From: Giardia intestinalis
Taxonomy: Eukaryota
Strand: one strand, 5' to 3'
DNA: 64,000 bases
Assembly (NCBI GenBank): GCA_000002435.2
Contig: CM018791.1
Positions 4,401-64,000 of the stretch are shown piece after piece (the stretch's first letter is position 1; each line of letters starts with the position of its first letter). The notes under the pieces were generated by a model. The model was not told the DNA's origin, made no database searches, and saw only the letters and a list, made by a program, of their open reading frames with translations. The position numbers were made by a program, and so were the translations under genes.

Positions 4401-6025
4401 GTATGGAATATGCAAGAGCTGTATGCTGGGGGTGGGATGCAGAAAGAGGCCAGATCTGTGTAGACAACCATACCATCCTGAATACGGGAGAACGAACCAG
4501 TAAACGATTGCTGCAACGCAGCATGCAAGGTTGTAGACAAGAGAAACCGTGGAGAAGCTATACAGATTACACCTCCGTCCTCGGAGATATAGCTTGGTGC
4601 AGTCAGTGGAACCCCGGGATAACAGGGAATAACTATCTCAGCTGCAAGCCTCCATACATAGGAGGCCGTCGCGTATACGGCCATGCAATAGAACCCCTGT
4701 CCTCTATGGAGCACAAGCACATGATGTCCTTGATCCAATCGCACCCCTTTAACCATAACCAGTTCTGCATGCTGACTCCCAGGACTAGGGACACGTAACG
4801 GAAATACAATATGTGGATTGCGCAGTACTAAGGGATCATAGAGACACACAGAAGATGGATAGATTGCCATGGTGTTTGCAGAAAACGTCAGGTTATCAGT
4901 AAAGTTCTTAGGAACACCATAGTACTGCTTGTACCACTCCAGGTCATCGTGCTCTCCCATGTAGGACGAAGGGGTCCAGCTGACGTCCTCAATGGACTCT
5001 AGGGCAATTTCTCGGCCTTCATATGGGATGTACTTCTGTGCGACATTGGTAGAGCATGCACATTCATGTGGTGTAGCAGACTCGGCAGTTGCTTTACAGC
5101 ATGCAGTGTGTGCTTCGCTCTTGGTGGATACGCCTGGTTTGGATTGTAGCTGGGGCCGACATGTCAAAATCACAAACCGTCCATCGCTTGTAAAGCCGTG
5201 GAAATCCAACGGTTGATCCTGTTTGCGCCAGCTACACGGTACCCAGCCAACTCTATCTCTGGATAGCTCCTGCTTGAATTGAGCACGAAGTTCCGAGGAG
5301 AAGTTCAATTGCTTGGCGAATGTAACGTCAAAATGCGAAGAGGAAGCATCGGCTAATACAAGAAGGTATGAGCCAGAGTCGTTGGTGGACACATGGACAG
5401 CTAATAAGAGCCCCGTGGGGTCAAAGGATGCTTTTAGCTTGCGCAGAGAGACAGTGGTGGGTAGCTCTAAGTGATGCACGACTGTGCACAAGTGTTTGAG
5501 AGCAGGGAGGGCGCAGATGCATTCGTCCTCGTAAAACATGATGGTGAGGGAGCAGTCTGCATGAAGAACGCAGTATGCAAAGAGTCCTGCAGAAGAAGTA
5601 GTGATGCAAAAGATATCTGATGGCAGGCGAGCAGCCATAAGCTTTAGCTGAATTGAGCTGGAAAACCCGCCCTCTGTTACATGGCACTCGTAAAGAGAGT
5701 CATCCACCATGTATAACAGCATATTCGGATAGAGTAATGAAGCAGCCATAATTGGGGAGGAAAACTGGCATGTGTATGGAGAAATGGACGTTGATTTAGA
5801 ATATGACAGAGAGTGTTCATACACCGCAAATATCCCTCCATCATCAGTAGGAAACACCCCAATTAAGGTGTCGCTGGACCCAGAAGCCAGAGGATAGCGG
5901 GAAAAACTGGCAGGAATAATACTGTCCATAAATGTCAGCCAAAAATGCCAGCTAAGATTTAAGTTTATTAATTGAAAGTATGATTTGCCATGTGTTTGTT
6001 GCTTATGGAGGCACAACGGCAGCAT
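1484..6025 (-). CDS. large hypothetical protein (1513 aa), predicted mixed beta/alpha-solenoid architecture
   Basis: Uninterrupted 4.5-kb ORF. ATG at 6025 preceded by GAAAAACTAAAATG initiator. No recognisable catalytic motif; C-terminal basic coiled segment (KAKRKRLESL). Confidence 0.65.
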   Translation of the reverse strand: MLPLCLHKQQTHGKSYFQLINLNLSWHFWLTFMDSIIPASFSRYPLASGSSDTLIGVFPTDDGGIFAVYEHSLSYSKSTSISPYTCQFSSPIMAASLLYPNMLLYMVDDSLYECHVTEGGFSSSIQLKLMAARLPSDIFCITTSSAGLFAYCVLHADCSLTIMFYEDECICALPALKHLCTVVHHLELPTTVSLRKLKASFDPTGLLLAVHVSTNDSGSYLLVLADASSSHFDVTFAKQLNFSSELRAQFKQELSRDRVGWVPCSWRKQDQPLDFHGFTSDGRFVILTCRPQLQSKPGVSTKSEAHTACCKATAESATPHECACSTNVAQKYIPYEGREIALESIEDVSWTPSSYMGEHDDLEWYKQYYGVPKNFTDNLTFSANTMAIYPSSVCLYDPLVLRNPHIVFPLRVPSPGSQHAELVMVKGVRLDQGHHVLVLHRGQGFYCMAVYATASYVWRLAAEIVIPCYPGVPLTAPSYISEDGGVICIASPRFLLSTTLHAALQQSFTGSFSRIQDGMVVYTDLASFCIPPPAYSSCIFHTTEPLIATCIIQQHEQDVYVAVVTSTKLLVVLVSPFSSLTLTSEAPAIAGDTSFEEQEKLVQADSVIARVMKGNKKAHFQALNDLEDTGQAGQRSTSYDIVTKEELLVDPFRSDHLQEHILTHTSATFLELDFASQLSTDLLESVLSCDGSLLLFPVALQGPESMDTAESKSITIHFLGLTTDHELISVILRPELVLASKACSLRSVSVFVNHEQEYKILSSSPKIAIPLERFRKSFYLRRVLQEKENNEQALTSPISSFSEFSSFYWVLCEASVSTESTWLLFAIPRAHPQLVIYRIVSHASERIYEPIYSCNIEPQSTILYATELSVTLYVKRGYLDVKHPSRLSYFRACSLLKQALALNSSVENILEVCFVSRLLLSSLCRNDTLSEEDLVLYFRLLFSSNPILLLRALEAVVCPHEMKTYTAITFDRYNTTERHEVSFWARFVDWLFENIGFVKSISAQAYKDGDELHGAWLKSLLRILQLHATYHSGFTRDFGYQNRGGQERIFVELSAAFASAYIAAPDVEGGPSLTVFITHLASAATSYQMSLVHLLQTIELCLFQQSHYVDMHMVADAMGLPISAVAASCFGLTDELFLRCRSDPLLKACTYLAMASNGVYTVYTQKDLAVFYDLQPSVAFPFISSTPLKYQCTSVFTGLDIAYCLILQIFTLLNNELDTENIAKVNALIFQFANWDRKQVALGALRYLKEMLDSNASLLAEVLHEYPLEEYLIRLAVPASAVGMEVTTTLLEVFLPICERLKDPLMAGKVYPLLDTIAMAVQLRFITEPDHERETSKLQALRLRVCDGSKAKSQAGLSNQYSLVHLMFNALNVTVATDQSHQMPEILSELREIEVSDAALKILHSLLTHNMVSASQVLQLLKCKLIAEGVCAAEAEMVTQKSDINALHKQYQAVRAKMDAHKEKHENQMGKNTRLHQLDEKMKAKRKRLESLSNQIHNSYRDNALLLCFCFIV

Positions 6026-10661: not shown

Positions 10662-10798
10662 TTGAACTGCGGCTTAATTTCGGTTTACTGCAGTGCTCTA
10701 GTGAATTATATGGAAGATGTTTTTAGACACAGTTCATCAGACACATTTTAGTTACAGGGTTGAGACACATTTTAATTAAAAAATTTATAGCGTCCCCT

Positions 10799-12583
10799 AT
10801 GAGTTCAGCTTGCTCGTCTCGGGTAGAGTTCTTGGGGTCTGGTGACGAGTACGTTGGTATCAGTCAATCAGCAACCAACGACCTTATTTCAGGACACCCG
10901 CACCGATGCCGTGATGTCATAATGCAGGCAGAGAGTCTATCAGCCCAGGCAAGCACTCAACCCGACACTCCCTGGAGCACGCTGGCCCCCAGACCAGCCA
11001 TAGTAAGGGCTGCTGCCCCCCACCGCACACCCATCTATCTAACTGCATTTGTCGTCGTCCCTTGTTATCTACTCTACTCAATGATCTCGGCATCCTTTTC
11101 TACAAATCTACCGATAATTTCATCTTCTCTAAACATAGATATCTCTCAAGCGCAATGGATAATCCACACCGAGCTGATAGTCTGCTGCGGGTTCAGCGCC
11201 ATCGTCCCCAAGCTCTCGGAGCGCTTAGGGCTCAATAGGGTATTCTTGGCCGGTGCATTTCTCTTCGCAGTGGTGACGTTCCTTATGGGCTTTCTAGGCA
11301 ACAGCTATGCATCCATACTCGTTCTTCGCATCATATCTTCTATCGGCTTAGCTATGATGCTATCTCTAGCAAACACGATGGCATACTTCATGAGTCCCAG
11401 AAAAGATCTAAGCGTAGTACTAACAATATCTAATGTCTGCACACCAATCGGCCAGATTCTCTCTAGCTTTCTATCTGGGTGGATAGCATATTCGTCTAAG
11501 TGGCAATATATATACATACTTATAGGATGCCTATCCGCCGTTCACGCTGCCTATTCAGTTGTGTTATGCCCAAACTTTCCGACCACTCGAGGAGTGAAGT
11601 TCGATGTTGTTGGAACTCTGCTTATGGTAGCGTCCATCACACTTCTGATTTTTTCTCTTTCTGCCTCCACGGTGACTGTGCCATGGTGGGGAGTGACCAT
11701 CTGCTTCATTTTGGCTATTGTGTTCTTTATTCTGTTCGTCTTCTGGAACAAGCAGTGGTGCAAGAATCCGCTCTTTCCACCAACAGCGTTCAACAAGTCC
11801 GTTCTACTCAACATGTCTGCGTTGTGTATGATCTCTGCTTTTGGGTTTGGAGAGCGCTTCTTTCTCCCATACACAATAGTGATATTCTATAACTATTCCC
11901 GTCTATCTAATGGCGGCTTTCTGGTTATTGGTGGCGTACTGAGCATAATATTTTCGCCTCTCTTTAGTCTGAGTACGAAGCGGGTGGTCAGCCGACTGAT
12001 GCTAATGATGCTGAGCTTAATATCTTTGCTCCTAGTTCTCATCGAGGCGTTCTTTTTGCAAGAAAGTGTCGCGCTTCCGATAGTGTTCAGTAACCTGTGT
12101 CTTATCTGCTTTATCGGCTGCTTAATCACTGTGCAGACCACTGCAGTGGTTAACACACCGGTCATGTATATTTCGACTCTAGGGTCTCTAAATTCTATCA
12201 TGCTCAACTTTGGTCACTCACTGGGTGTGACCACGGCAGTCACGACGCAGAACGTTGTCGCAAAACTTGGCGGTGTTTCCAATACCAACCTTCCCAATTG
12301 GGATGCAGATCCCGGTGCCAGAACAGCCTACGGGCTCAGCTTGACATTTGGCATCCTCAGTTGTATCTCCTTCTCTATCACTCTATTCTTGCTGGCTATT
12401 TTCATGGGCGTACTGAAGAGTGATCGTGGCAAGTTGGGCTTCTCTGAAAGACGATTATCCAAAACAAAACATTTCAGCGAGAACATAAACAACAACGGGG
12501 AAATGATAGAAGTCCAAGAATCCAGTATAGCGTTTACATCTCAACAGGTCATAGCGTCATTGTTTCAGCCCAAGTTCATATAG
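10799..12583 (+). CDS. MFS transporter (DHA2-like, about 14 TM segments)
   Basis: ORF track start 10760 is TTG; first ATG at 10799 follows ATTTTAATTAAAAAATTTATAG. Many hydrophobic helices; KFDVVGTLLMVASITLLIFSLS segment typical of drug:H+ antiporter-type MFS. Confidence 0.6.
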   Translation: MSSACSSRVEFLGSGDEYVGISQSATNDLISGHPHRCRDVIMQAESLSAQASTQPDTPWSTLAPRPAIVRAAAPHRTPIYLTAFVVVPCYLLYSMISASFSTNLPIISSSLNIDISQAQWIIHTELIVCCGFSAIVPKLSERLGLNRVFLAGAFLFAVVTFLMGFLGNSYASILVLRIISSIGLAMMLSLANTMAYFMSPRKDLSVVLTISNVCTPIGQILSSFLSGWIAYSSKWQYIYILIGCLSAVHAAYSVVLCPNFPTTRGVKFDVVGTLLMVASITLLIFSLSASTVTVPWWGVTICFILAIVFFILFVFWNKQWCKNPLFPPTAFNKSVLLNMSALCMISAFGFGERFFLPYTIVIFYNYSRLSNGGFLVIGGVLSIIFSPLFSLSTKRVVSRLMLMMLSLISLLLVLIEAFFLQESVALPIVFSNLCLICFIGCLITVQTTAVVNTPVMYISTLGSLNSIMLNFGHSLGVTTAVTTQNVVAKLGGVSNTNLPNWDADPGARTAYGLSLTFGILSCISFSITLFLLAIFMGVLKSDRGKLGFSERRLSKTKHFSENINNNGEMIEVQESSIAFTSQQVIASLFQPKFI

Positions 12584-21383: not shown

Positions 21384-24188
21384 CTATACGTTTACTACGC
21401 AACAGAGAAAGTAGCATTCTGCTGCAGGTGAAATCGAGAGAAAGAACCTGACTCCCCGTGGGATCGCAACACTCTCATACTGGCCAGTTGTGTACTCGGT
21501 TAGCTCTCCTTCTTTGGCCGATGTGTTTCCGTATAAAGAGAACCTAGCCCAGCCCTGAGATAGCTGGGTAATACAGTATCCGCTTGAGGTGATACGGTCA
21601 CTTTGGCCGACACCATAGAGGTGCCAGAGCATGGCCCCACCTGGCCGCTTACCATCAGCACGTTCCTCAATAATTCTGGCCATTTGAAGTCCATGAAAAT
21701 GCTCAAAGGAAAGCCCTGAAAAGCTCTTGAAGACATTGATGGACTGGGATCCTGATTTGTTGGTATACCAAAATCTATCCTCGTTGATTATGAGATTATT
21801 TTTTTGTACTATCCGTTGTATTCGTTCGGATTGCTTTTTTATGAAAAGTTGAGAATTTTCTAGACCAGCCCTAAAGTCGGCAGGTTGCTGACGTTTAGGC
21901 CGAGGAGGCTTATTCGGAATGAATGCGACCTTGACGCTTACAATGTAGGGTTTTTCTCCCGACGGATATGCGTACACCAAACCTTCTCCAATGGCCTTAT
22001 CAAGTTCTGGGACAACAATTCGCCCAGTACTGTGATCCCTGGGCAAGCAAGAATGGTCAACCGGGATGTTTTCTAGTTTAATATCCCGCACTTTTTTGGC
22101 ATTCATAACGGGTACTCCATACCTTCGACGAATCTCTTCTAACGTTAAGCCTGTCCCAGAGGTAAGGAAATTGCGGAGTTTATATGAGCCATAGACCTCG
22201 TCATATAGCTCCTTCCTAAAGTAGCTGTCGACAGTGCTGTGGTTCAGGTGGGCCATATCTATCTTCTTTGGCTTCTTCCGACTTGGTTCTGCCGGCTCGT
22301 CAACTAGACCCGATACAATGCTTTCGTTCGCTGGTACTTTTGAAGAAAAGCTGCCACTTTGCCTGTATGATTCCGTTTGGTCTATGTAATCAGTGGTATC
22401 GGCAACCGTAAACGGTTTAGATGTGCCTTCAGTAGCGTATCTATTGCCCTGATCATCTCCTTTATCCAGCTCGATTGGGTGCTGTAGGGGAGGCGGTGGA
22501 GTTAGGACGATCTTGCCATTCTTGTACGCTGGCTGTAAGTCCATCATTGTTAAAGTGTTATCTATAGATTTTGCAGCTGTCTTTGCATGCTCATCTTGGC
22601 GCCGAGGCTCAGCAGATGCTTCACGCGGAGATACTGAGATAGGAAATCTGGATGGATCTGATGTGTGCTCTCTGGAATTGGGGACAATGTTCAGTAGGTT
22701 TGAGGACTTTGCACTGCTACTAACTAAGCTTATATTCCGCTGAATTGCTTGGCCAATGGCTGTCATGCTCCGTCTAGGACGGTACTGGCTCTTGCGTATA
22801 TCTTCTACACCGATGATCCTGATATTGTCCTTCGTAGATTCTTGTAGATTTATAGACTCCATGAGTTCATTGGCAACAGAGTTAGTTGGTTTTTCTGGAG
22901 TAGCAGGGTCAATGGAGACATCATGAACAGAATGTGCTTCATCATGTGTGTGTCCTTGAATTGCTTGAACATTAATCACCTCCAGATCGGCAGGGGCCTG
23001 CTGTGGAGGCAGCTCCCTGCCTGCCACAACCTCGTGGAAGCGTTCTGGCGGTTGAATTACCGAAAACTTCCGTAGCTGTTTCACTTCTATGCCATCCTCT
23101 GCCTCGGTATCGTGATGTTTCTGTACGTTCTTTCTGGGGAGGGGCTGATGTCTTTGCTCTAAAACCTTTTGTGGTATCGGCTGCACTGAGTACACTTTTG
23201 CATCTGCCTCTTCTTTCTGCACTGTGTTTATATTATGGACCACGACAGACGCAGCTGTTTCTGAAGTTACTGCTGCAGCGATCACTGCTGGTTTTGGTAC
23301 AACTGGAGCCTCTCTCTCAGCAAAGTATGGGTCATGAAAAGAATCTGAACTCGAGGCAGATACGTCAGGATCTATCTGTTGACTGGATAAGTCAAGCATC
23401 CCCTTTTTCTTTTGAGCTCCCTCGAGTCGCCGGCCCTTTTGTGCTTTTTGTGTTATAGGTTTCTTTTGCTCTATCTTGGTTTGCTTCTCGTTGCCGACTG
23501 CAGCGGTAGTTTGTTGCTGTGGCGACTGCGGTGATTGTGATGATTGTACGTATGCCCATTCCACAGGCGAGGGCTTTTTCTCGAGGCCCTTTGGGCGTTT
23601 CTTCTTGAGTTTCTTCCTTTGCAAGACAGGATGCTTTGATACTTTGGGTGGAGCGTTATTTAGCTCCTTTTGATATGTTTTCATATAACTATCTTTACAG
23701 CTCTGCTCCACCTCAGCCAGCTGTTGCTCCTGGCTTTTTGGAAGGTGTGCTATATCTTTGTTATGCACGCTATCTATAGCACTAGCTTCTATGTGCTGGC
23801 TAGACTCGTCTGCGTTGATGGAGTCAAATTGAAAGAGGGAATCTTTTGCAAACACATCTGGAACTTCAAAAGCAGATGAGGCACTAGGGTGAAGAGCACG
23901 TGACATGGGAGCGGTACTGTTTGGCGATTGACCAAAGCCACTTAAACCAGCCAAGTTGCGTGACTGCTGACTTGCGAACTTGATTCCAGAATTCAGATTA
24001 TTGAGCATGTGCTTCGCGTCACTCAACTCACCTAGGCTTGTGGCACCTGAGGCATCAATCTCCGCGTCTCGTAAGAAGAGAGCAGCGTCATCTTTTGATA
24101 CGCCGGTGAGTCCTAGATTATCTTTTTGTAGTAACATGTTCCGACGGATTAGGCTTTCCATTGTCCCATTTGTATCTGCATTTGGCAT
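21384..24188 (-). CDS. large hypothetical protein (934 aa) with a low-complexity basic middle region and a structured C-terminal domain
   Basis: ATG at 24188. KKKRPKG/QKKKG basic stretches, S/T/Q-rich segments. C-terminal about 300 aa (…FWYTNKSGSQSINVFKSFSGLSFEHFHGLQMARIIEE…) looks globular but unassigned. Confidence 0.6.
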   Translation of the reverse strand: MPNADTNGTMESLIRRNMLLQKDNLGLTGVSKDDAALFLRDAEIDASGATSLGELSDAKHMLNNLNSGIKFASQQSRNLAGLSGFGQSPNSTAPMSRALHPSASSAFEVPDVFAKDSLFQFDSINADESSQHIEASAIDSVHNKDIAHLPKSQEQQLAEVEQSCKDSYMKTYQKELNNAPPKVSKHPVLQRKKLKKKRPKGLEKKPSPVEWAYVQSSQSPQSPQQQTTAAVGNEKQTKIEQKKPITQKAQKGRRLEGAQKKKGMLDLSSQQIDPDVSASSSDSFHDPYFAEREAPVVPKPAVIAAAVTSETAASVVVHNINTVQKEEADAKVYSVQPIPQKVLEQRHQPLPRKNVQKHHDTEAEDGIEVKQLRKFSVIQPPERFHEVVAGRELPPQQAPADLEVINVQAIQGHTHDEAHSVHDVSIDPATPEKPTNSVANELMESINLQESTKDNIRIIGVEDIRKSQYRPRRSMTAIGQAIQRNISLVSSSAKSSNLLNIVPNSREHTSDPSRFPISVSPREASAEPRRQDEHAKTAAKSIDNTLTMMDLQPAYKNGKIVLTPPPPLQHPIELDKGDDQGNRYATEGTSKPFTVADTTDYIDQTESYRQSGSFSSKVPANESIVSGLVDEPAEPSRKKPKKIDMAHLNHSTVDSYFRKELYDEVYGSYKLRNFLTSGTGLTLEEIRRRYGVPVMNAKKVRDIKLENIPVDHSCLPRDHSTGRIVVPELDKAIGEGLVYAYPSGEKPYIVSVKVAFIPNKPPRPKRQQPADFRAGLENSQLFIKKQSERIQRIVQKNNLIINEDRFWYTNKSGSQSINVFKSFSGLSFEHFHGLQMARIIEERADGKRPGGAMLWHLYGVGQSDRITSSGYCITQLSQGWARFSLYGNTSAKEGELTEYTTGQYESVAIPRGVRFFLSISPAAECYFLCCVVNV

Positions 24189-24262: not shown

Positions 24263-24955
24263 ATGAGCAGGCAACTTGGGGATTTACTCGAAAACATAAA
24301 GGCGGCAGTATTCGACTTTGACGGGACTCTGGTCGATTCGCATAAGATATGGGCAAAAATAGATCAGGATCTTTTCGATCAACTGGGTCTAGTACAGCCC
24401 CCGAACTACGAAAAGGACATTGCTGGAAAGCGTCTACCAGAGATAGCTAAGTATATTATTGAGCACTTCCAGTTGACGAATGTGAGCCAGGAGAGAATTC
24501 TGAGCTGCTGGGAGGAAAGCTATATGAAGTACTTTTCCAGCTCAGCACAATTCATAGATGGCGCTGCCGAGTTTCTTACGTACTTGGCATCCAAAAACAT
24601 TGCCATCGGGATTGCCACTGCTTCCACACACAAACTAGTAGAGCTGTTTTTCTCCAACCATCCTGAAATACGTGCACTGATAAGTTGCGTAGTCACATCA
24701 GAAGACGTTGTGCACTCTAAGCCAGCTCCAGATGTTTTCCTGAAGTGTCTAGAGAGCCTAGGTGCTCATCCCAGCGAGGGGATCATTTTTGAAGACTCTC
24801 TTGTGGGTCTTTCTGCAGCTACCAAGACAGGAAGCAAGGTGGTTTGTATTCTTTCCCACCCTGATGACCATTTAGAAAAGAAAGAGCTGAGCCAGTTGCA
24901 AATTAACTCTTATTCTGAGTATCTGTATCAATCTCGTACACTGGAGGAAAGCTGA
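24263..24955 (+). CDS. HAD-superfamily hydrolase (beta-phosphoglucomutase/phosphatase-like)
   Basis: ORF track start 24251 is TTG; ATG at 24263. HAD motif I AAVFDFDGTLVDS, plus later conserved blocks (GIATAS…, IIFEDSLVGLSAATKTG). Confidence 0.75.
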   Translation: MSRQLGDLLENIKAAVFDFDGTLVDSHKIWAKIDQDLFDQLGLVQPPNYEKDIAGKRLPEIAKYIIEHFQLTNVSQERILSCWEESYMKYFSSSAQFIDGAAEFLTYLASKNIAIGIATASTHKLVELFFSNHPEIRALISCVVTSEDVVHSKPAPDVFLKCLESLGAHPSEGIIFEDSLVGLSAATKTGSKVVCILSHPDDHLEKKELSQLQINSYSEYLYQSRTLEES

Positions 24956-25121
24956 AGCAATCTTCTGGGCAAATCTGCATACACTGTAAGCATTGGAAAC
25001 ACTTGTGAGGGTCACGGAGAGAGATCTTGTTATTCTGGATGACGAGAATAGATAATGGGCAGGCTTGTACACACTGACCACAAAGGGTGCATGCATCAAC
25101 ATCCAAGATAATCCGCTGCAT
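24903..25121 (-). CDS. 2x[4Fe-4S] ferredoxin (72 aa)
   Basis: ATG at 25121. Two complete cluster-binding motifs, CTLCGQCVQACP and CFQCLQCMQICP. Overlaps the HAD gene 3' end by 53 nt on the opposite strand. The competing 129-aa ORF 24872..25261 (other frame) has no motif support. Confidence 0.7.
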   Translation of the reverse strand: MQRIILDVDACTLCGQCVQACPLSILVIQNNKISLRDPHKCFQCLQCMQICPEDCFSFPPVYEIDTDTQNKS

Positions 25122-25299
25122 AGTTCACAGAAAGAATTGGCTTTTTCTTTTAAATTTCTGGGAGCTGGTTTGTCAGCTGTTGTTCGAGTAAACTTATCAG
25201 GCAAGTCGTCGTGCTGAGTGGGATTCTCTCTCAGTCCATCTATCCAAAGTTCAAAATTCAAATTTCATCCAGTTTTGGGAAGAGGAGGAGCTAGTTGGC

Positions 25300-28240
25300 T
25301 CGTGAGCATGTCGATAGAGACGACTCGAAGCGGGATCCGGCAGACACTTGGCGGGATGATGGTACTGCAGGCGAAGAGAGCCCTCGCGCTCGCCACCCCA
25401 ATCGATCTCCCTACTAAAGAGCAAGCATGTGGCTGACTCCTAAAACGGCTGCCGCTATCACTGAACCCTCTCCCCAGCTGGGCTAGTCGTCAAATGGGAA
25501 GTGGCTCATGAACGCATCACCTCGCCTTTGGGGGCCCGATTCACCTCTACTGTATCGTCCATGGCGCTAAGATTTATGGAAGACACGCCTGCTCCAACAT
25601 CCCCAGGACGCTGAGAGAGATCAGAAGGCCTTCCAAGTCCTCTGGAGGCGTTTAGATGCAACTCCTAGCTCTTGCTCTCGGGAGACCTCGATAGGGATCA
25701 GCAACCAACACGTAGACTGCGACCTATGTAATCAAGACCTGGAACAGATGGCCTTCGTTATCGACAAGACAAGAACAGGTGATGGAGCTCCGTTCTCCCC
25801 GGATCCTGTGCTCCAGAGGAGGCAGGGCTTCCAGTCACTGACTGCCCCGACAGGAGTCATGCGTCTGCTGATGCTTTGTGAGGACCGCATGGACTCCGAC
25901 TCGTGCCTATACACTGTGGATGCTGTGGGTCTCTCGAGGGAGATGCTCCGACGCCATAACAAGAACAGAAGCCTCAGGTGCACATGTGAGAGCTTGACAC
26001 GGGATATAGAGCTGATTCAGGCCTCATCTAAGAACCTGGGGGCGTTTCACACGCTGGAGGATACCAGGATTGGGGGAATCCCCATCGTCTGTTGCCCCAA
26101 ATGCTTCAGCACCAGAATGGCGAGTAGGAGACATCTGGCTAAAACGAAACACTCTGTGCTGATGTGACACCAGATGACAATCACTCAAGCATGAACAGGA
26201 CGAGCATCTGCCCGCTCTGTACAAAACCCACTGGAGCCAGAGCTATCCGAATGTACTGTGGCACAGACAGCAAGTGCAGGGTGCTACTGCGCGAAAGGAT
26301 GGAGATGGCAGAGGAGATGCACCTCGTCACACTACGGGCCACTACATGGGCAACACCCACCAGAAGGTTCCGAACAAGAATAGGCCACCGAGCGCATGAA
26401 GGACCCCCTGGCGAAGAGCAGCTGCCGCCCCATGGGGCTCCTCTCCCACGGGCCCCCTCGACCCGGACTCCTCAGAGGGGATCAGGGTAGCGTACGAGCT
26501 GCACCCTGGAGGGACACGAGCCCCCTGTCCTACAGCCAGCGGAGAGCACGGGCATCTCTCCCAAGGTCACTGACGACGAGATGACCCGGGGGTCCGTCCA
26601 TGGGCTCTCGAGGTCTCCTGGACCTTACCTGGACCTGCGTACTGGGGGTCCTCATCCCCAAGAACGAGGCAAGCATAACCTGTGGAGCGACCACGACGGC
26701 CCTTTACAGATACTACCGGGCCATCTGAAGTCCCAGGCGCTGGACACTGGGGCTTGCATGCACGTGTAGTGTGCGCTCGTATGTGCACACGAGACTGAGG
26801 AAGCCAGGCGGTCTTGCTCGACTCCAAGGCGCCCTCAACAGCAGCCCCGGTCCTGCACAGTCTCGGCCAGGAGAACGCGCCCCTCGCCCTGAGGAGCTAC
26901 ACGTGGCCTTCCTCTGGCTACAGCACACATGGACTCGGTCCCGTGCAGTGTTCCTCAGGGACCCTCTAGGTATGTTCCTATGCTGCGCTGGACGGAGCGC
27001 GCTCACTAAACAGCTGAAGGAGATGCCCCCTCAGTGCCTACGCCGACGGCGTACTGATCCTTCACGACGACAACAACGAGGTAATGAGGTTGACAAACCC
27101 ACGGACTGACGATCAACACAGACAACTCAAGAGCACCGAGGGGGCAGGAGGCTCCTTCCTGGGTGTCCGGTCTCGAGGAGCGGCTACCCACGGCCTCCAA
27201 GGAGATAGAGAGGGCAACGAAAAGGTTGCAACTGTGTCAATCGCCCACCACCCCGAGCCGAGCTGGTCTGGACAGACTCACCACGCGACCCCTACGGATC
27301 CCTCGGGGGGCAGGCAGAGCCCTCTGGGATGCTCGGCTCGAACAACAGCAGACCGAGCTCCTGGCTACGCAGGACAGCGGCGGTCGGGAGTCCACCACAA
27401 GCAGCTGCGCGGTGCTTGACACCTCGACGTGAGACGTGGCATCACAGCAGGCTGCCGAGCGGGACGGCCTCGTGGTGAGCAACGCATCGTACATGAACTG
27501 TGCTCTGATCGCTCCAATACTTCAGATAACGCCTCTCGGAGAGCTGTGACCGGGCCAGCCTCTCCGGCTGAACGACTCATGGCTCCACGTACACTCTGCG
27601 GCACGGATGGGTGCAGACCACACCAGCCGAGCCGGCACACTGCACAGGGTGTGGACCTGCGAGTGTGTACTGGCTGCTGACCACCTGGCACCACAGGTGC
27701 ACTGCGGTCCATGAACAGAAGGGCGGGCCGGGCGTTTCCTCCGCGCCAACCAGGGGTCGATATGGAGGCTACGGGTACACGCTACAGTCCAGGAGGACGC
27801 ATGGCGAGCGCACCCCGACAACAGGATCGATGGTCCACTCCACGAGGAGGCGAGAAGGAACCCGAGTCGGCATCCCGGGATTATAATACATGCGATCTTC
27901 GTTATGGAGCGCCAGCACCGAGTGGCCCTGGGTTGTACGGCCGGGAGCACTATTCCTAAGGTCAGATAGCAGCTGATCCAAGGGGACTGAGTGAGAGAAG
28001 CGAAAAACCTAGATCGATATCGTGAGAGACGGGACGGTGACTTGCAAAGCGAAGAACTATGATATTTCCCCTTTTCTGCCAGAGCTGGACAGTGTCCGAA
28101 TTTCCGATTCCAAATGCTGGACACACTGAGCGAGGATGCCGTTCAACATAGTGACTCGTACGATGGACTTACTCAGACTGCGGCCAGCAAACCAACTTCT
28201 TTTTGAAGAGAAACGACAGATTTATTCATGAGACTACAGA
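25300..28240. other. GC-rich (about 60%) ORF-poor island, roughly 3 kb, nature unknown (candidate decayed mobile element, pseudogene or ncRNA locus)
   Basis: Only short overlapping ORFs in all six frames, typical of non-coding GC-rich DNA. No A/T-rich initiator or long ORF. The composition differs from the flanking ~48-50% GC coding DNA. Confidence 0.4.
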
Positions 28241-35391: not shown

Positions 35392-37254
35392 TCACATATT
35401 ATCTTCATTGTGTTGATCGTTCTGTGTAGCAGATGAGCGCTCATCTTCTCTGATAAGGGCGTCATCTTCTGGCCGCAAGACCTTCACGGATACCTTGTGG
35501 GGCTCCGGAATACTAATGGGAATTTTAGAGATCAAACGCGGATTGAGGCGCGCAATAGCAATGACTCCATATATGATAAATGGGATTCCCAGTGAAAAGA
35601 GACCAATTATGACCCAACACGTTTGCCGATAGTCAAACTTTATTGAGATATAACGAACTACTGGTATGAAAACTGAAGAGATTATATACTGAAGAGAGAA
35701 CACCAGGCCCAAGCTTGTCGCCGGAATCTTCCGCCCCGCAAGCGTAGTAATAACAAACGCAAAATTAGCTGCAAAGAAGCCTATTGAAATACCCAAAAAG
35801 GACATGGTTACTTGTGCAGAGAAAGCATTCTGGAACTTTTTTACCGCACCGAATATATATAGCGTTATTTGTGCCACAGTGTACATTATAGTTCCTAACA
35901 GGACAAAGAAGATTGGGCCAAAGTATGACAATCGGGACAGTAGGCCACTTATAAACAAAAAAATGGACGACAAAAGCTGGCTCAGACCAACGGCTAGCAC
36001 TGCGTCCTCATTTTTGATATTCAAGATGGAGGTGAGTGATAGAACAGAAGTTGCATTAAACGTACTAACAGCACCTATTACAAGGATTCGCGGGACCATA
36101 ACCATGAAGAGAGCCAAGGGTGCTTCCCTAATAGATCTGAACGAAGATAGGAACAGCTCCTTACAGCGTCGACAGGTGCACCTGCGAGTGCGCCTATTGG
36201 GGAGCTGATAGGTGATCTTCTTATTGCGTAAAGGAGCAGACTCGTCGCAGATAGTTATTTCCATAGTTTCTTCTGTTCCCATGACGCATGTGATGGACCC
36301 TTCAAATGAACAGAGGGTACTTATATCATTGATAGAAGCATCTGGATTGTCAAAATATACCATTATTTCAGATTGTGTAAACATTTGAGACGGCAGCTTT
36401 GTAGCGACTTCGCCTTTGTCGTCAGGGTTCCAATTCCTTGAGCGAGAGCGCGGGATAGCGAACTGTGATAGAAGAGTCTTGTTGTACTTGGCGGATGAGA
36501 CAGAAATGTTAGTCCTAGGATGCTCTATGCAGGACTGTGTCTCTGGCAGAGTCTCTGGAAAAGGAGTGTTAAGCTCTGCATTGGCTAACATATTTTGGCG
36601 CTGCAGATCTGCGATCGCCACATACTCATTCAGGAGATCGTCAAAGTACTTTCTCCTTACCTCCAGAAAAGTGTAGACAGCTCCTAATGTGGTAGAAAAG
36701 AATATCAAACATGCACATAACAAATAAGCCTCTCGAAGATTATTCATGGACCCTATCACGATACTTGCCAGCGTATGTCCAAGCATGACGCTAGCAAAGA
36801 TCAGCCCGAACCCCACTGGTTGCCAGCGGAGCGGTATGAAGTACTGCATGAGCCGTGCCTGGACCATGATCACAGCCTCGCCAGAGAGGCCAGAGGCAAA
36901 CTGGGCGATAATAAATTGAGTAGCCGTGGTGCAGAATGCACATGCTACTGCACAGAGAAGCTGCAGAACATGAATAGGAACTAGAAAATACTGGGGCCCA
37001 AATGTGTCTATAAAGAATGAAACAAGGAAAGTGCTGAAAAAGCACTGTACAGAGTTAATAGTTGCTGTGAGAGAGATGATGTCTTGTCTCTGGAAGGTGT
37101 CAATAATTAGTTTTGATAGAGGATTGGAGGAGCTTGTAAATATGTTAACAGGAACGAGCGTTATTGAGATAAAGAATATGTGGACGACGATAAGCGTTCC
37201 CTCAGTGCAGCGAGAGCGTCTGCGCAGCGGCATGAAGGACGCAAGCTCGTCCAT
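35392..37254 (-). CDS. MFS transporter (6+6 TM with a large central cytoplasmic loop)
   Basis: ATG at 37254 after AGTACTAAAATG. Two hydrophobic six-helix bundles separated by a soluble loop of about 190 aa. Confidence 0.65.
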   Translation of the reverse strand: MDELASFMPLRRRSRCTEGTLIVVHIFFISITLVPVNIFTSSSNPLSKLIIDTFQRQDIISLTATINSVQCFFSTFLVSFFIDTFGPQYFLVPIHVLQLLCAVACAFCTTATQFIIAQFASGLSGEAVIMVQARLMQYFIPLRWQPVGFGLIFASVMLGHTLASIVIGSMNNLREAYLLCACLIFFSTTLGAVYTFLEVRRKYFDDLLNEYVAIADLQRQNMLANAELNTPFPETLPETQSCIEHPRTNISVSSAKYNKTLLSQFAIPRSRSRNWNPDDKGEVATKLPSQMFTQSEIMVYFDNPDASINDISTLCSFEGSITCVMGTEETMEITICDESAPLRNKKITYQLPNRRTRRCTCRRCKELFLSSFRSIREAPLALFMVMVPRILVIGAVSTFNATSVLSLTSILNIKNEDAVLAVGLSQLLSSIFLFISGLLSRLSYFGPIFFVLLGTIMYTVAQITLYIFGAVKKFQNAFSAQVTMSFLGISIGFFAANFAFVITTLAGRKIPATSLGLVFSLQYIISSVFIPVVRYISIKFDYRQTCWVIIGLFSLGIPFIIYGVIAIARLNPRLISKIPISIPEPHKVSVKVLRPEDDALIREDERSSATQNDQHNEDNM

Positions 37255-37442: not shown

Positions 37443-38867
37443 TCACTGAGGAAGTAACGATTCTACAGGGCGGTGCTGGTAGTGCGTATGAAGAAGTTCG
37501 TGAGCCTCATGCTCTGTAAGACATCCGTTAAAGCCCCAGAGGGTCTTATTTTCTCCTGCTGATGCAAAGCGCTCCTTACCATCAAGTATATCAAGCGTAG
37601 ACGCACGCGTCAAGACCGCTTCTTTCTTTCCTTTAATCTTTGGCATCCCTCCACCATTCTGGCACCCGCCAGGGCAGGCCATCTGCTCGACAACGTCGCA
37701 TTCGACCTCCTTGTTGAGCACCATCCTTGCTGCTGCGTTGATAGCAGATCCGCCATGAGCGATAAGTGCACGGTATGTTTCTCCAGCTATTTCGCAGCTT
37801 ACCAGTTTCACTGTTTGCACCAATTGGCCCGGAGTCTTGAACTCCTTTAGTAGCTCTTCCTTGACGTTTTCTATTGGAGACTTCTTCATATAAGATATAA
37901 AGCGCAGGCAAGTCTCGGCAACACCGCCGGTCTTTCCAAATATATGCGACCCGCCACTGACGGTATTGAACGGCGCATCAAAGTCCCACTTCTTCTGAGT
38001 GGAGCGGCCAGGTCTTAGGACGAGTGCATCTGCTTCGACCTCCTCTAGAGTGAGACGAGCACCATGAAGGAAATACAGATGTTCCGCCACTTCGCGCACC
38101 GTCAAACATATGTCAACGTCTCGATTGAGCTGGGGGCGCATTGATTCATCCTTCTTTGCAGTGCAAGGCATGATGTCGGCGACATAGACGTCGTCAACAC
38201 TATCAACGATACCCTTGGGAATGAGATGCTCCTGGACCCAGCGTCTCTTGACCAACGTGGCAACCATTGCAACGCAGCTCTTCGCAGTCGACACCTGCGG
38301 AAGCAGCTCTGGATATTTCATCTCGCAAAGATTGACCCATGCCGGGCAGCAGCTCGTGAACACGGGTCCACGCCCCTCATGTTTGAAGTGAAGAAGCTCC
38401 TGGGTGTCAATGACCGTTGTTTCATCAGCCCCGAAATTCACGTCAAAAACGTAGTCGAAGCCTAAGTACTGCTTGAGCATGCGTATCAGCGAGTATATTG
38501 TGTTTGTACCTATTGGCAGGCCAAAGACGTCTCCAAACGCAACGCGCGTCGAAGGGGCAATGAGAGCCACCCTGACCTTTTTCGACGCAGACTCGCCCTT
38601 ATAGATCTCCAGGTTGTTCTTGGGAGCAATTGCGTCAACAGGGCATATGGTTGCACACTGCCCACAGCCAATGCAGTCGCTGTTGAAGAGGGTAGAGAGC
38701 TTGACTATCGGAGGGTACTTCGGCTTCTCGTTCTGCTTATAGACGCCTATCCCTTGAACATCACAGGCCTTGATGCACATGTTGCACCCGATACACTTGG
38801 CGTAGTCTATCATAATGGCGTTATTGGAGTCTACGCCGGTGACGTCATGCTGAGGCTTAGGGGGCAT
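37443..38867 (-). CDS. [FeFe]-hydrogenase (short monomeric form with N-terminal 2x[4Fe-4S] ferredoxin-like domain)
   Basis: ATG at 38867 after CCTTTAAAAATG. Ferredoxin motifs CIGCNMCIKACD and CIGCGQCATICPVDAI. H-cluster signatures FTSCCPAWV (L1), MPCTAKKDE (L2) and EQMACPGGCQNGGGMP (L3). AGTGAAT polyadenylation-like element downstream. Confidence 0.92.
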   Translation of the reverse strand: MPPKPQHDVTGVDSNNAIMIDYAKCIGCNMCIKACDVQGIGVYKQNEKPKYPPIVKLSTLFNSDCIGCGQCATICPVDAIAPKNNLEIYKGESASKKVRVALIAPSTRVAFGDVFGLPIGTNTIYSLIRMLKQYLGFDYVFDVNFGADETTVIDTQELLHFKHEGRGPVFTSCCPAWVNLCEMKYPELLPQVSTAKSCVAMVATLVKRRWVQEHLIPKGIVDSVDDVYVADIMPCTAKKDESMRPQLNRDVDICLTVREVAEHLYFLHGARLTLEEVEADALVLRPGRSTQKKWDFDAPFNTVSGGSHIFGKTGGVAETCLRFISYMKKSPIENVKEELLKEFKTPGQLVQTVKLVSCEIAGETYRALIAHGGSAINAAARMVLNKEVECDVVEQMACPGGCQNGGGMPKIKGKKEAVLTRASTLDILDGKERFASAGENKTLWGFNGCLTEHEAHELLHTHYQHRPVESLLPQ

Positions 38868-63871: not shown

Positions 63872-64000
63872 GGGTGTTGAGTGAAGGATGCTCTGTCAAA
63901 TCGTCTAATCAAGGTATTGACCTCAGACAGGGATAACAAGCCATCATTGCATTTTTTACGTTTCACTTCGATTTATTCACTTACTTGTGGTGGAATGCCT

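Follow-up and report, generated by a model that had tools for sequence, protein, structure and literature searches.

A small dicluster ferredoxin gene convergent with, and overlapping, a HAD hydrolase gene in Giardia intestinalis

Dicluster ferredoxins hold two cubane clusters about 12 Å apart and pass single low-potential electrons. The gene considered here, which encodes a protein of this kind, is a 72-codon open reading frame (ORF) on the minus strand of a 64,000-nucleotide stretch of Giardia intestinalis DNA (contig CM018791.1 of GenBank assembly GCA_000002435.2; "the window" below is this whole stretch), where it converges on and overlaps the gene for a HAD-superfamily hydrolase. In Giardia, the role assigned to ferredoxins is to carry electrons from pyruvate:ferredoxin oxidoreductase (PFOR) to hydrogenase, oxygen-detoxifying systems, nitroreductases and nitro drugs (PMC6519707; PMC5355454; PMC6312909). 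An earlier note, made from the sequence of the window, had proposed the ORF as a "hidden" 2x[4Fe-4S] ferredoxin gene. By exact-sequence look-up, its product is 100% identical over 72 residues to "Ferredoxin" of G. intestinalis ATCC 50803 (WB) (KAE8302926.1 / XP_037901828.1 / UniRef100_D3KFY4; UniProt D3KFY4), which is GL50803_23325: the two are the same gene without any difference, and the finding is a rediscovery of that entry.

The gene is already known, both from the reference annotation, in which the "hypothetical protein" of early releases is now "Ferredoxin", and from papers on metronidazole resistance and Fe-S proteins. Under the name GL_23325 it is, together with GL_4081, one of "two un-annotated ferredoxins" whose transcription was found by strand-specific RNA-seq to be up in the metronidazole-resistant line 713-r (Ansell et al., 2017; PMC5355454), and it is included among ferredoxin structural homologues (Ansell et al., 2019; PMC6312909). 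KAE8302926.1 also appears, as GL50803_23325 "hypo (4Fe4S Ferredoxin)", among 40 predicted Giardia Fe-S proteins (Motyckova et al., 2023, S2 Table; PMC10578589). A ferredoxin named Fd4 after Ansell's scheme (DHA2_151386/GSB_153527) was analyzed by Saghaug et al. (2019; PMC6519707), who described two four-cysteine motifs in each of Fd1, Fd2 and Fd4; we infer that Fd4 is GL50803_23325, that paper giving no WB identifier for it.

Sequence and predicted fold of the ferredoxin

The ORF encodes a product of 72 amino acids, MQRIILDVDACTLCGQCVQACPLSILVIQNNKISLRDPHKCFQCLQCMQICPEDCFSFPPVYEIDTDTQNKS, with two perfect CxxCxxCxxxCP motifs (Table 1), as the earlier note had described it. In a six-frame scan, three such motifs occur in the window, two in the ferredoxin and one in the N-terminal ferredoxin domain of an [FeFe]-hydrogenase, whereas mononucleotide shuffles of the window (n = 200) gave 0.005 on average and never more than 1; the claim that the pair is not there by chance is borne out. 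None of the eight motif cysteines varies when orthologues and prokaryotic relatives are aligned. A ninth, C55 (24957-24959, minus strand), lies four residues past motif II (CPEDC), and is found in all G. intestinalis lineages, in Giardia muris (CPASC) and in one prokaryotic relative, P0241 (CPTGC).

Nine Pfam families score above their curated cut-offs, the best being Fer4_10 (5.7e-12; 45.8 bits against a cut-off of 25.5) and Fer4 (1.1e-11; 44.5 against 21.1), with Fer4_7 (37 against 27) and Fer4_9 (33.9 against 27) among the others. The best sequence matches in the PDB are dicluster modules of the methanogen polyferredoxins MvhB and FwdF, RnfB, NDH subunit I, PsaC and clostridial ferredoxins. 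A single-sequence AlphaFold2 model was poor (predicted local distance difference test, pLDDT, 61), but a 16-sequence alignment gave a mean pLDDT of 84, with residues 11-60 in blocks at 89-93; the last 12-20 residues, forming a C-terminal tail, are non-helical and of low confidence (about 45-58). Foldseek comparison of this model with the PDB returned FwdG, HgcB, the ferredoxin domain of oxalate oxidoreductase (a PFOR relative), HydB, 1FCA and 1DUR, all with probability 1.00 and query-normalized template modeling (TM) scores of 0.64-0.74. The predicted fold is the pseudo-twofold (beta-alpha-beta)2 ferredoxin fold, and the motif pair, the profiles and the modeled structure together place GL50803_23325 among the bacterial-type dicluster 2x[4Fe-4S] ferredoxins (Pfam Fer4 clan: PF13237, PF00037, PF12838).

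The protein is a single free module and not a domain of a larger one. The ferredoxin domain starts at residue 4, with no presequence or other N-terminal extension; in WB there is an in-frame stop two codons 5' of the ATG, and the sequence upstream is unconserved. At the other end, the stop codon has the same position in all G. intestinalis lineages, and the G. muris ORF has 66 codons for amino acids. A polyferredoxin of the MvhB/VhuB/FwdF type does not fit a single 72-residue module, and NCBIfam polyferredoxin profiles score far under their cut-offs (Vhu_polyferre 29.9 against 600 bits, FwdF 26.6 against 375 bits). Nor does the protein resemble a 7Fe ([3Fe-4S][4Fe-4S]) or Alvin-type ferredoxin: both motifs are complete, with four cysteines each, there is no insertion, and the modeled tail is non-helical.

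Table 1. Positions of the ferredoxin gene, its parts and other features within the window (CDS, coding sequence).
Feature	Position	Strand	Remarks
Ferredoxin CDS	24903..25121	-	72 codons plus TAA stop, ATG start; GL50803_23325 / KAE8302926.1; from ORF listing and exact protein match
Cluster motif I	25056..25091	-	C11-x2-C14-x2-C17-x3-C21-P22, CTLCGQCVQACP, residues 11-22
Cluster motif II	24966..25001	-	C41-x2-C44-x2-C47-x3-C51-P52, CFQCLQCMQICP, residues 41-52; followed by ninth cysteine, C55
HAD-superfamily hydrolase	24263..24955	+	230 aa; Pfam HAD_2 6.4e-30; convergent neighbor
Dual-coding stretch	24903..24955	both	53 nt; last 17 codons plus stop of ferredoxin
A-rich element	25141..25159	-	AGAAATTTAAAAGAAAAAG; 20-38 nt 5' of ferredoxin ATG; candidate promoter/initiator
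AGTAAA poly(A) hexamer	24283..24288	-	Antisense in HAD codons 7-9; first canonical one downstream of ferredoxin stop
Longer overlapping ORF	24872..25261	-	129 aa from TTG; no Pfam match; spurious
GL50803_17606 hypothetical protein	21384..24188	-	934 aa; next gene downstream on ferredoxin strand; exact look-up
[FeFe]-hydrogenase	37443..38867	-	Pfam Fe_hyd_lg_C 3.7e-61 plus Fer4 domains; 12.3 kb from ferredoxin
MFS transporter ORF	10760..12583	+	MFS_1 1.4e-21
MFS transporter ORF	35392..37254	-	MFS_1 1.7e-13
Box C/D small nucleolar RNA GlsR6	63890..63948	-	Rfam RF02475, 89.5 bits; only Rfam family at gathering threshold in window

Conservation and the shared 3' ends

Related loci were fetched through the HAD protein (L001-L007, from Logan) or through an upstream ORF (L012, from ENA), and the eight represent five further G. 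intestinalis lineages beyond WB. The ferredoxin ORF is intact in all eight, with equal length and stop position. Identity of its product to that of WB is 90-92% in L001/L002, 96% in L003/L004, 90% in L005-L007 and 100% in L012, where the whole locus has 94% DNA identity to the window; for the HAD protein it is only 75-78% in L001-L007 (three lineages). Within ferredoxin codons 1-55, which lie outside the overlap, variable sites are distributed 5/5/42 over the three codon positions (four lineages). Pairwise nonsynonymous divergence (dN) is 0.02-0.04, and synonymous divergence (dS) approaches or exceeds saturation; dN/dS, where computable, is 0.03-0.05. The HAD gene has a dN of 0.13-0.15, and the ferredoxin thus evolves roughly four times slower than its neighbor (about 0.03 as compared with about 0.14). 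Such slow evolution argues for a non-redundant role, a point to be seen in the context of nitro-drug activation.

These data bear directly on the alternative that the ORF is a chance or non-functional frame, or the decaying remnant of a domain, with the real feature at this position being the 3' untranslated region (UTR) of the HAD gene or the 129-aa ORF of Table 1. The frame is short, a longer one does lie over it, and gene calls at eight related loci leave it out; but chance would give far fewer motifs, six Giardia lineages and G. muris keep the frame intact, and the 5/5/42 pattern with the low dN/dS indicates strong constraint. The related loci cannot be misassembled copies of WB, as they have 79-89% nucleotide identity to it. 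The longer ORF, correctly reported in the earlier note as motif-less and in another frame, has no domain match and is broken by stops in L001, L003 and L005, that is, in all three other lineages examined, where the ferredoxin frame stays open; it was rejected as a real gene. Absence of a minus-strand transcript, or loss of the frame in closely related strains, had been named in advance as grounds for giving up the gene: published strand-specific RNA-seq reports transcription of GL_23325 (PMC5355454), and every related lineage examined keeps the frame. The chance-frame explanation is refuted by the conservation data, with practically no probability left to it, and profile matches, conserved frame and purifying selection together establish a genuine protein-coding ferredoxin gene.

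Automatic gene calls miss the intact ORF in eight of the eight loci (L001-L007, L012); in one other Logan contig the ferredoxin is called, with 18 additional N-terminal residues that are not conserved (P0002, 90 aa). The gene is easy for automatic callers to miss, but it is not "hidden", the protein having been deposited as "Ferredoxin" and discussed in papers. Nevertheless, a reading of sequence alone did pick out a real 72-codon gene that automatic callers had missed in eight related loci.

Besides the WB entry, an annotated small ferredoxin is found in G. muris. When the ferredoxin was used as query, a word-indexed homology search gave no match other than the protein itself, but HMMER, run exhaustively against 1.84 billion representatives, turned up a single close relative with one module, P0144 (66 aa, 56% identity, E = 3e-18). 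This is "Ferredoxin [Giardia muris]", TNJ28501.1, whose identity to the WB protein is 55% by tblastn and 53-56% by other tools. The eight motif cysteines, the ninth past motif II, the F-x-F-x-P tail and the downstream neighbor are all shared with the WB gene. At the G. muris locus (L010, CM016926.1, 10001-10210), the orthologue of GL50803_17606 starts 5 nt past the ferredoxin stop on the same strand, and beyond it lie orthologues of the next two WB genes; this shared gene order supports the orthology of TNJ28501.1.

The convergent neighbor in G. intestinalis encodes a protein 100% identical to "Beta-phosphoglucomutase [Giardia duodenalis]" (P0013); its score for the NCBIfam beta-PGM family (8e-31) is under the curated cut-off. 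The overlap between the two genes is exactly 53 nt, as first stated, and on the HAD side it takes in the last 16 complete codons, the stop and 2 nt of the codon before them. Seven of the seven loci measured (L001-L007) have an overlap of this same length. Nucleotide identity between lineages is 89-98% in the overlap, compared with 76-87% over the remaining ferredoxin CDS and 71-78% for the HAD CDS; at ferredoxin third positions it is 94-100% in the overlap and 38-71% elsewhere. This rise is what dual coding constraint predicts. The pair is thus a convergent (tail-to-tail) overlapping one in the full sense, with shared coding nucleotides, both frames conserved, and synonymous variation suppressed where they coincide.

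Both ends of the overlap look ancestral, to judge from alignment: the ferredoxin tail F-x-F-x-P-x-x-E is common to G. muris, and the "SYSEYL" segment of the HAD protein can be aligned to the C-terminal region of homologues from Spironucleus and bacteria. In G. muris no HAD gene is found at the ferredoxin position, between the ferredoxin and the next gene, and hence there is no convergent overlap; nor is there a G. muris match among the HAD homologues. The overlap is therefore specific to the G. intestinalis lineage, having arisen or been retained only there. It is otherwise unremarkable, such packing being common in Giardia genomes: 81% of WB tail-to-tail pairs have transcript overlap (Franzen et al., 2013; PMC3610916), and 9.5% of G. 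muris genes overlap a neighbor (Xu et al., 2020; PMC7641422).

Transcript ends and surroundings of the locus

The A-rich element of Table 1 stands out upstream of the ferredoxin ATG as the one block with partial conservation (four lineages), and G. muris has a counterpart, TTTTTAAAAG, at a similar distance. It is a candidate promoter or initiator; the gene would then be transcribed on its own from the A-rich region just 5' of its ATG, as is usual in Giardia. Its 3' end is packed against the convergent HAD gene, with 53 nt encoding the C-termini of both proteins.

The 3' end of the transcript is less easily placed. The poly(A) signal of Giardia is AGURAA, and the median 3' UTR is shorter than 100 nt (PMC9014877). 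Neither the ferredoxin stop codon nor that of the HAD gene has a canonical AGTRAA nearby. On the plus strand, the first AGTAAA after the HAD stop is at 25187 in WB, past the entire ferredoxin CDS, and its position is not conserved. On the minus strand, the antisense AGTAAA within the HAD gene lies downstream of the ferredoxin stop by exactly 615 nt in each of eight loci, WB and L001-L007 (four lineages). In G. muris, the ferredoxin stop itself overlaps a canonical AGTAAA (gccTAGTAAAaATG), immediately before the ATG of the next gene.

One possibility is that the convergent arrangement is regulatory, and not only a matter of compaction: a ferredoxin mRNA running antisense to this AGTAAA would couple the two genes or feed Dicer/Argonaute. 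The hexamer is the only canonical one downstream of the ferredoxin stop, and it sits just upstream of the promoter region of the next gene on the same strand, GL50803_17606, where a terminator would be useful. It is moreover an invariant six-base run with variable flanks, within otherwise variable codons (four lineages), when only 9 of 641 hexamer windows (1.4%) in the HAD CDS outside the overlap are invariant; that comparison, however, is a post hoc one, made on a single site after the pattern had been noticed, and the hexamer also encodes a conserved Leu-Leu of the HAD protein. A short 3' UTR is equally possible, as about 47% of mapped Giardia poly(A) sites are without a prominent motif (PMC3610916); the median length given above also speaks against the long antisense one. 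A regulatory role of the arrangement is on these grounds unlikely, and the antisense AGTAAA, which may be a distal 3'-end signal of the ferredoxin mRNA, is put forward as a candidate and a lead only. In its most specific form, the idea is that the ferredoxin mRNA may run for ~630 nt antisense through the whole HAD CDS to the AGTAAA, making the two mRNAs almost fully complementary and their expression coupled, possibly via Dicer/Argonaute. This seems quite improbable; if true, it would mean that a conserved sense/antisense pair couples a redox carrier with a sugar-phosphate hydrolase. Whatever their use, the 53 nt of dual coding and the conserved antisense AGTAAA are minor, testable oddities of how genes are packed in a very compact eukaryotic genome.

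Several features upstream of the ferredoxin are of separate interest. A segment of roughly 1 kb (25306-26325), starting 185 nt upstream of the ATG, is 90% identical to positions 4560-5564 of another locus, L011, where the genomic context is different, with PGM/PMM-like and ATP_bind_3 genes lying upstream of it; the ferredoxin in L001 is not preceded by this segment. The segment holds a 139-aa ORF (25748-26167, plus strand) with unannotated relatives of 122 to 172 aa in other assemblies, and looks like a dispersed repeat. The surrounding stretch, ~25250-28000, is G+C-rich (55-65%, where the window averages 48%) and poor in ORFs, an unusual feature in this compact genome; Pfam and Rfam searches of it gave no meaningful Pfam match and no Rfam match. 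In G. muris, 6.8 kb without called genes lie upstream of the ferredoxin orthologue (L010 3168-10001).

Farther away in the window, the two MFS transporter ORFs flank the region, one of them directly adjoining the [FeFe]-hydrogenase gene. No tRNA genes were found in the window. The small nucleolar RNA GlsR6, a Giardia RNA, together with the exact matches to G. intestinalis WB proteins, rules out the bacterial, operon-based reading of the locus that was implicit in the earlier note.

That reading matters for the [FeFe]-hydrogenase, which the earlier note had placed 12 kb from the ferredoxin and offered as a likely recipient of its electrons. The gene is indeed there, at 12.3 kb, and most likely corresponds to GL50803_6304, whose accession (KAE8302931.1) comes five numbers after that of the ferredoxin (mapping from PMC10578589, S2 Table). 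Giardia is a eukaryote with monocistronic genes and no operons, and proximity of the hydrogenase is therefore not evidence of function. Within 10 kb on either side of the G. muris ferredoxin orthologue there is no hydrogenase, and a conserved linkage of the two genes was accordingly dropped. The general idea of an electron carrier for hydrogenase or PFOR metabolism does fit the literature on Giardia ferredoxins; what falls away is the 12-kb linkage as an argument for it.

Proposed function and comparison with known ferredoxins

Taken as a whole, the locus is very probably best explained by GL50803_23325 (Fd4) being a stand-alone, bacterial-type dicluster ferredoxin, most likely a cytosolic low-potential carrier, with its gene convergently packed against that of the HAD hydrolase. 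In such a protein, each CxxCxxCxxxCP motif would give three cysteines to one [4Fe-4S] cluster and the fourth to the other, and the two motifs would jointly make up the compact (beta-alpha-beta)2 fold known from low-potential electron carriers, behind which comes a tail of ~17 residues. With the domain lacking any N-terminal extension, a location in the cytosol is most likely, and the clusters would then come from the cytosolic Fe-S assembly pathway. As one of a set of ferredoxins with partly redundant functions, the protein would most likely take single low-potential electrons from PFOR to acceptors that may include the [FeFe]-hydrogenase, ferredoxin-nitroreductases and nitro drugs. Such a role in low-potential electron transfer in the cytosol is plausible for this paralogue; the type and stoichiometry of clusters in vivo, the cytosolic location, the redox partners, and the promoter and poly(A) usage of Fd4 are what we infer.

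Several points weigh against this picture. The ferredoxin purified from Giardia as the major one is generally assigned to a different gene, GL50803_9662 (Fd1). A literature search for biochemical, proteomic or localization data on the GL50803_23325 paralogue found none (its tryptic peptides include ISLRDPHK and IILDVDACTLCGQCVQACPLSILVIQNNK). No NCBIfam equivalog or subfamily profile reaches its cut-off, so that no finer functional class can be given, and the lack of a canonical poly(A) signal near the stop codon has been described above. Finally, the nearest relatives among prokaryotes are parts of multi-domain proteins (polyferredoxins, for example) or the ferredoxin domain of P0202, a partial bacterial protein that is among the closest single-module matches and in which the sequence after the ferredoxin domain looks, on our own reading, like the start of a nitroreductase domain.

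Relatives embedded in this way make it possible that Fd4 is a dedicated redox partner of one enzyme and not a general carrier from the PFOR pool to hydrogenase. The enzyme might be a nitroreductase, a radical-SAM activase, or GL50803_87577, a glutamate-synthase-like putative ferredoxin:NAD(P)H reductase with which GL_23325 is co-up-regulated in line 713-r (PMC5355454); bulk flux could be carried by at least five other Giardia ferredoxin-like genes (PMC6519707; PMC10578589). On the other hand, the gene is not fused to any other and has no conserved redox neighbor in G. intestinalis or G. muris. Small dicluster ferredoxins are, furthermore, typically promiscuous. A dedicated partner is a serious alternative, if a somewhat unlikely one, to the general cytosolic carrier proposed above.

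How does that carrier compare with described systems? The ferredoxin-nitroreductase fusions, Giardia GlNR1 and GlNR2 and their bacterial relatives, have the same dicluster domain N-terminally, and Fd4 superimposes on the ferredoxin domains of the nitroreductases (Saghaug et al., 2019; PMC6519707). GL50803_23325, in contrast, has no nitroreductase domain, and ends at a conserved stop after residue 72 (66 in G. muris).

The methanogen modules of MvhB (9SW6_G), FwdF (5T5I_F) and FwdG (5T5I_G) are the top sequence matches among solved structures (per-module i-Evalue about 1e-5), FwdG being also the top structural match of the model in Foldseek. They have the same spacing as the Giardia protein, C..C..C...CP, strand, hairpin, C..C..C...CP; but the methanogen proteins either have tandem modules with 2 to 12 or more clusters or belong to large complexes as subunits, whereas the Giardia ferredoxin is one free module in a eukaryote.

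As a free module it resembles the clostridial-type 2x[4Fe-4S] ferredoxins of C. acidurici (1FCA) and P. asaccharolyticus (1DUR), which are small stand-alone soluble proteins of about 55 aa with the same two CxxCxxCxxxCP motifs. Sequence identity to these is only about 23-26%, and the Giardia protein differs in its length of 72 aa, a slightly longer hairpin between the motifs, a tail of ~17 residues (FSFPPVYEIDTDTQNKS, of low model confidence) and the extra Cys55; the modeled fold, however, is the same, with TM scores of 0.64-0.65 when normalized by the query and 0.81-0.83 when normalized by the target.

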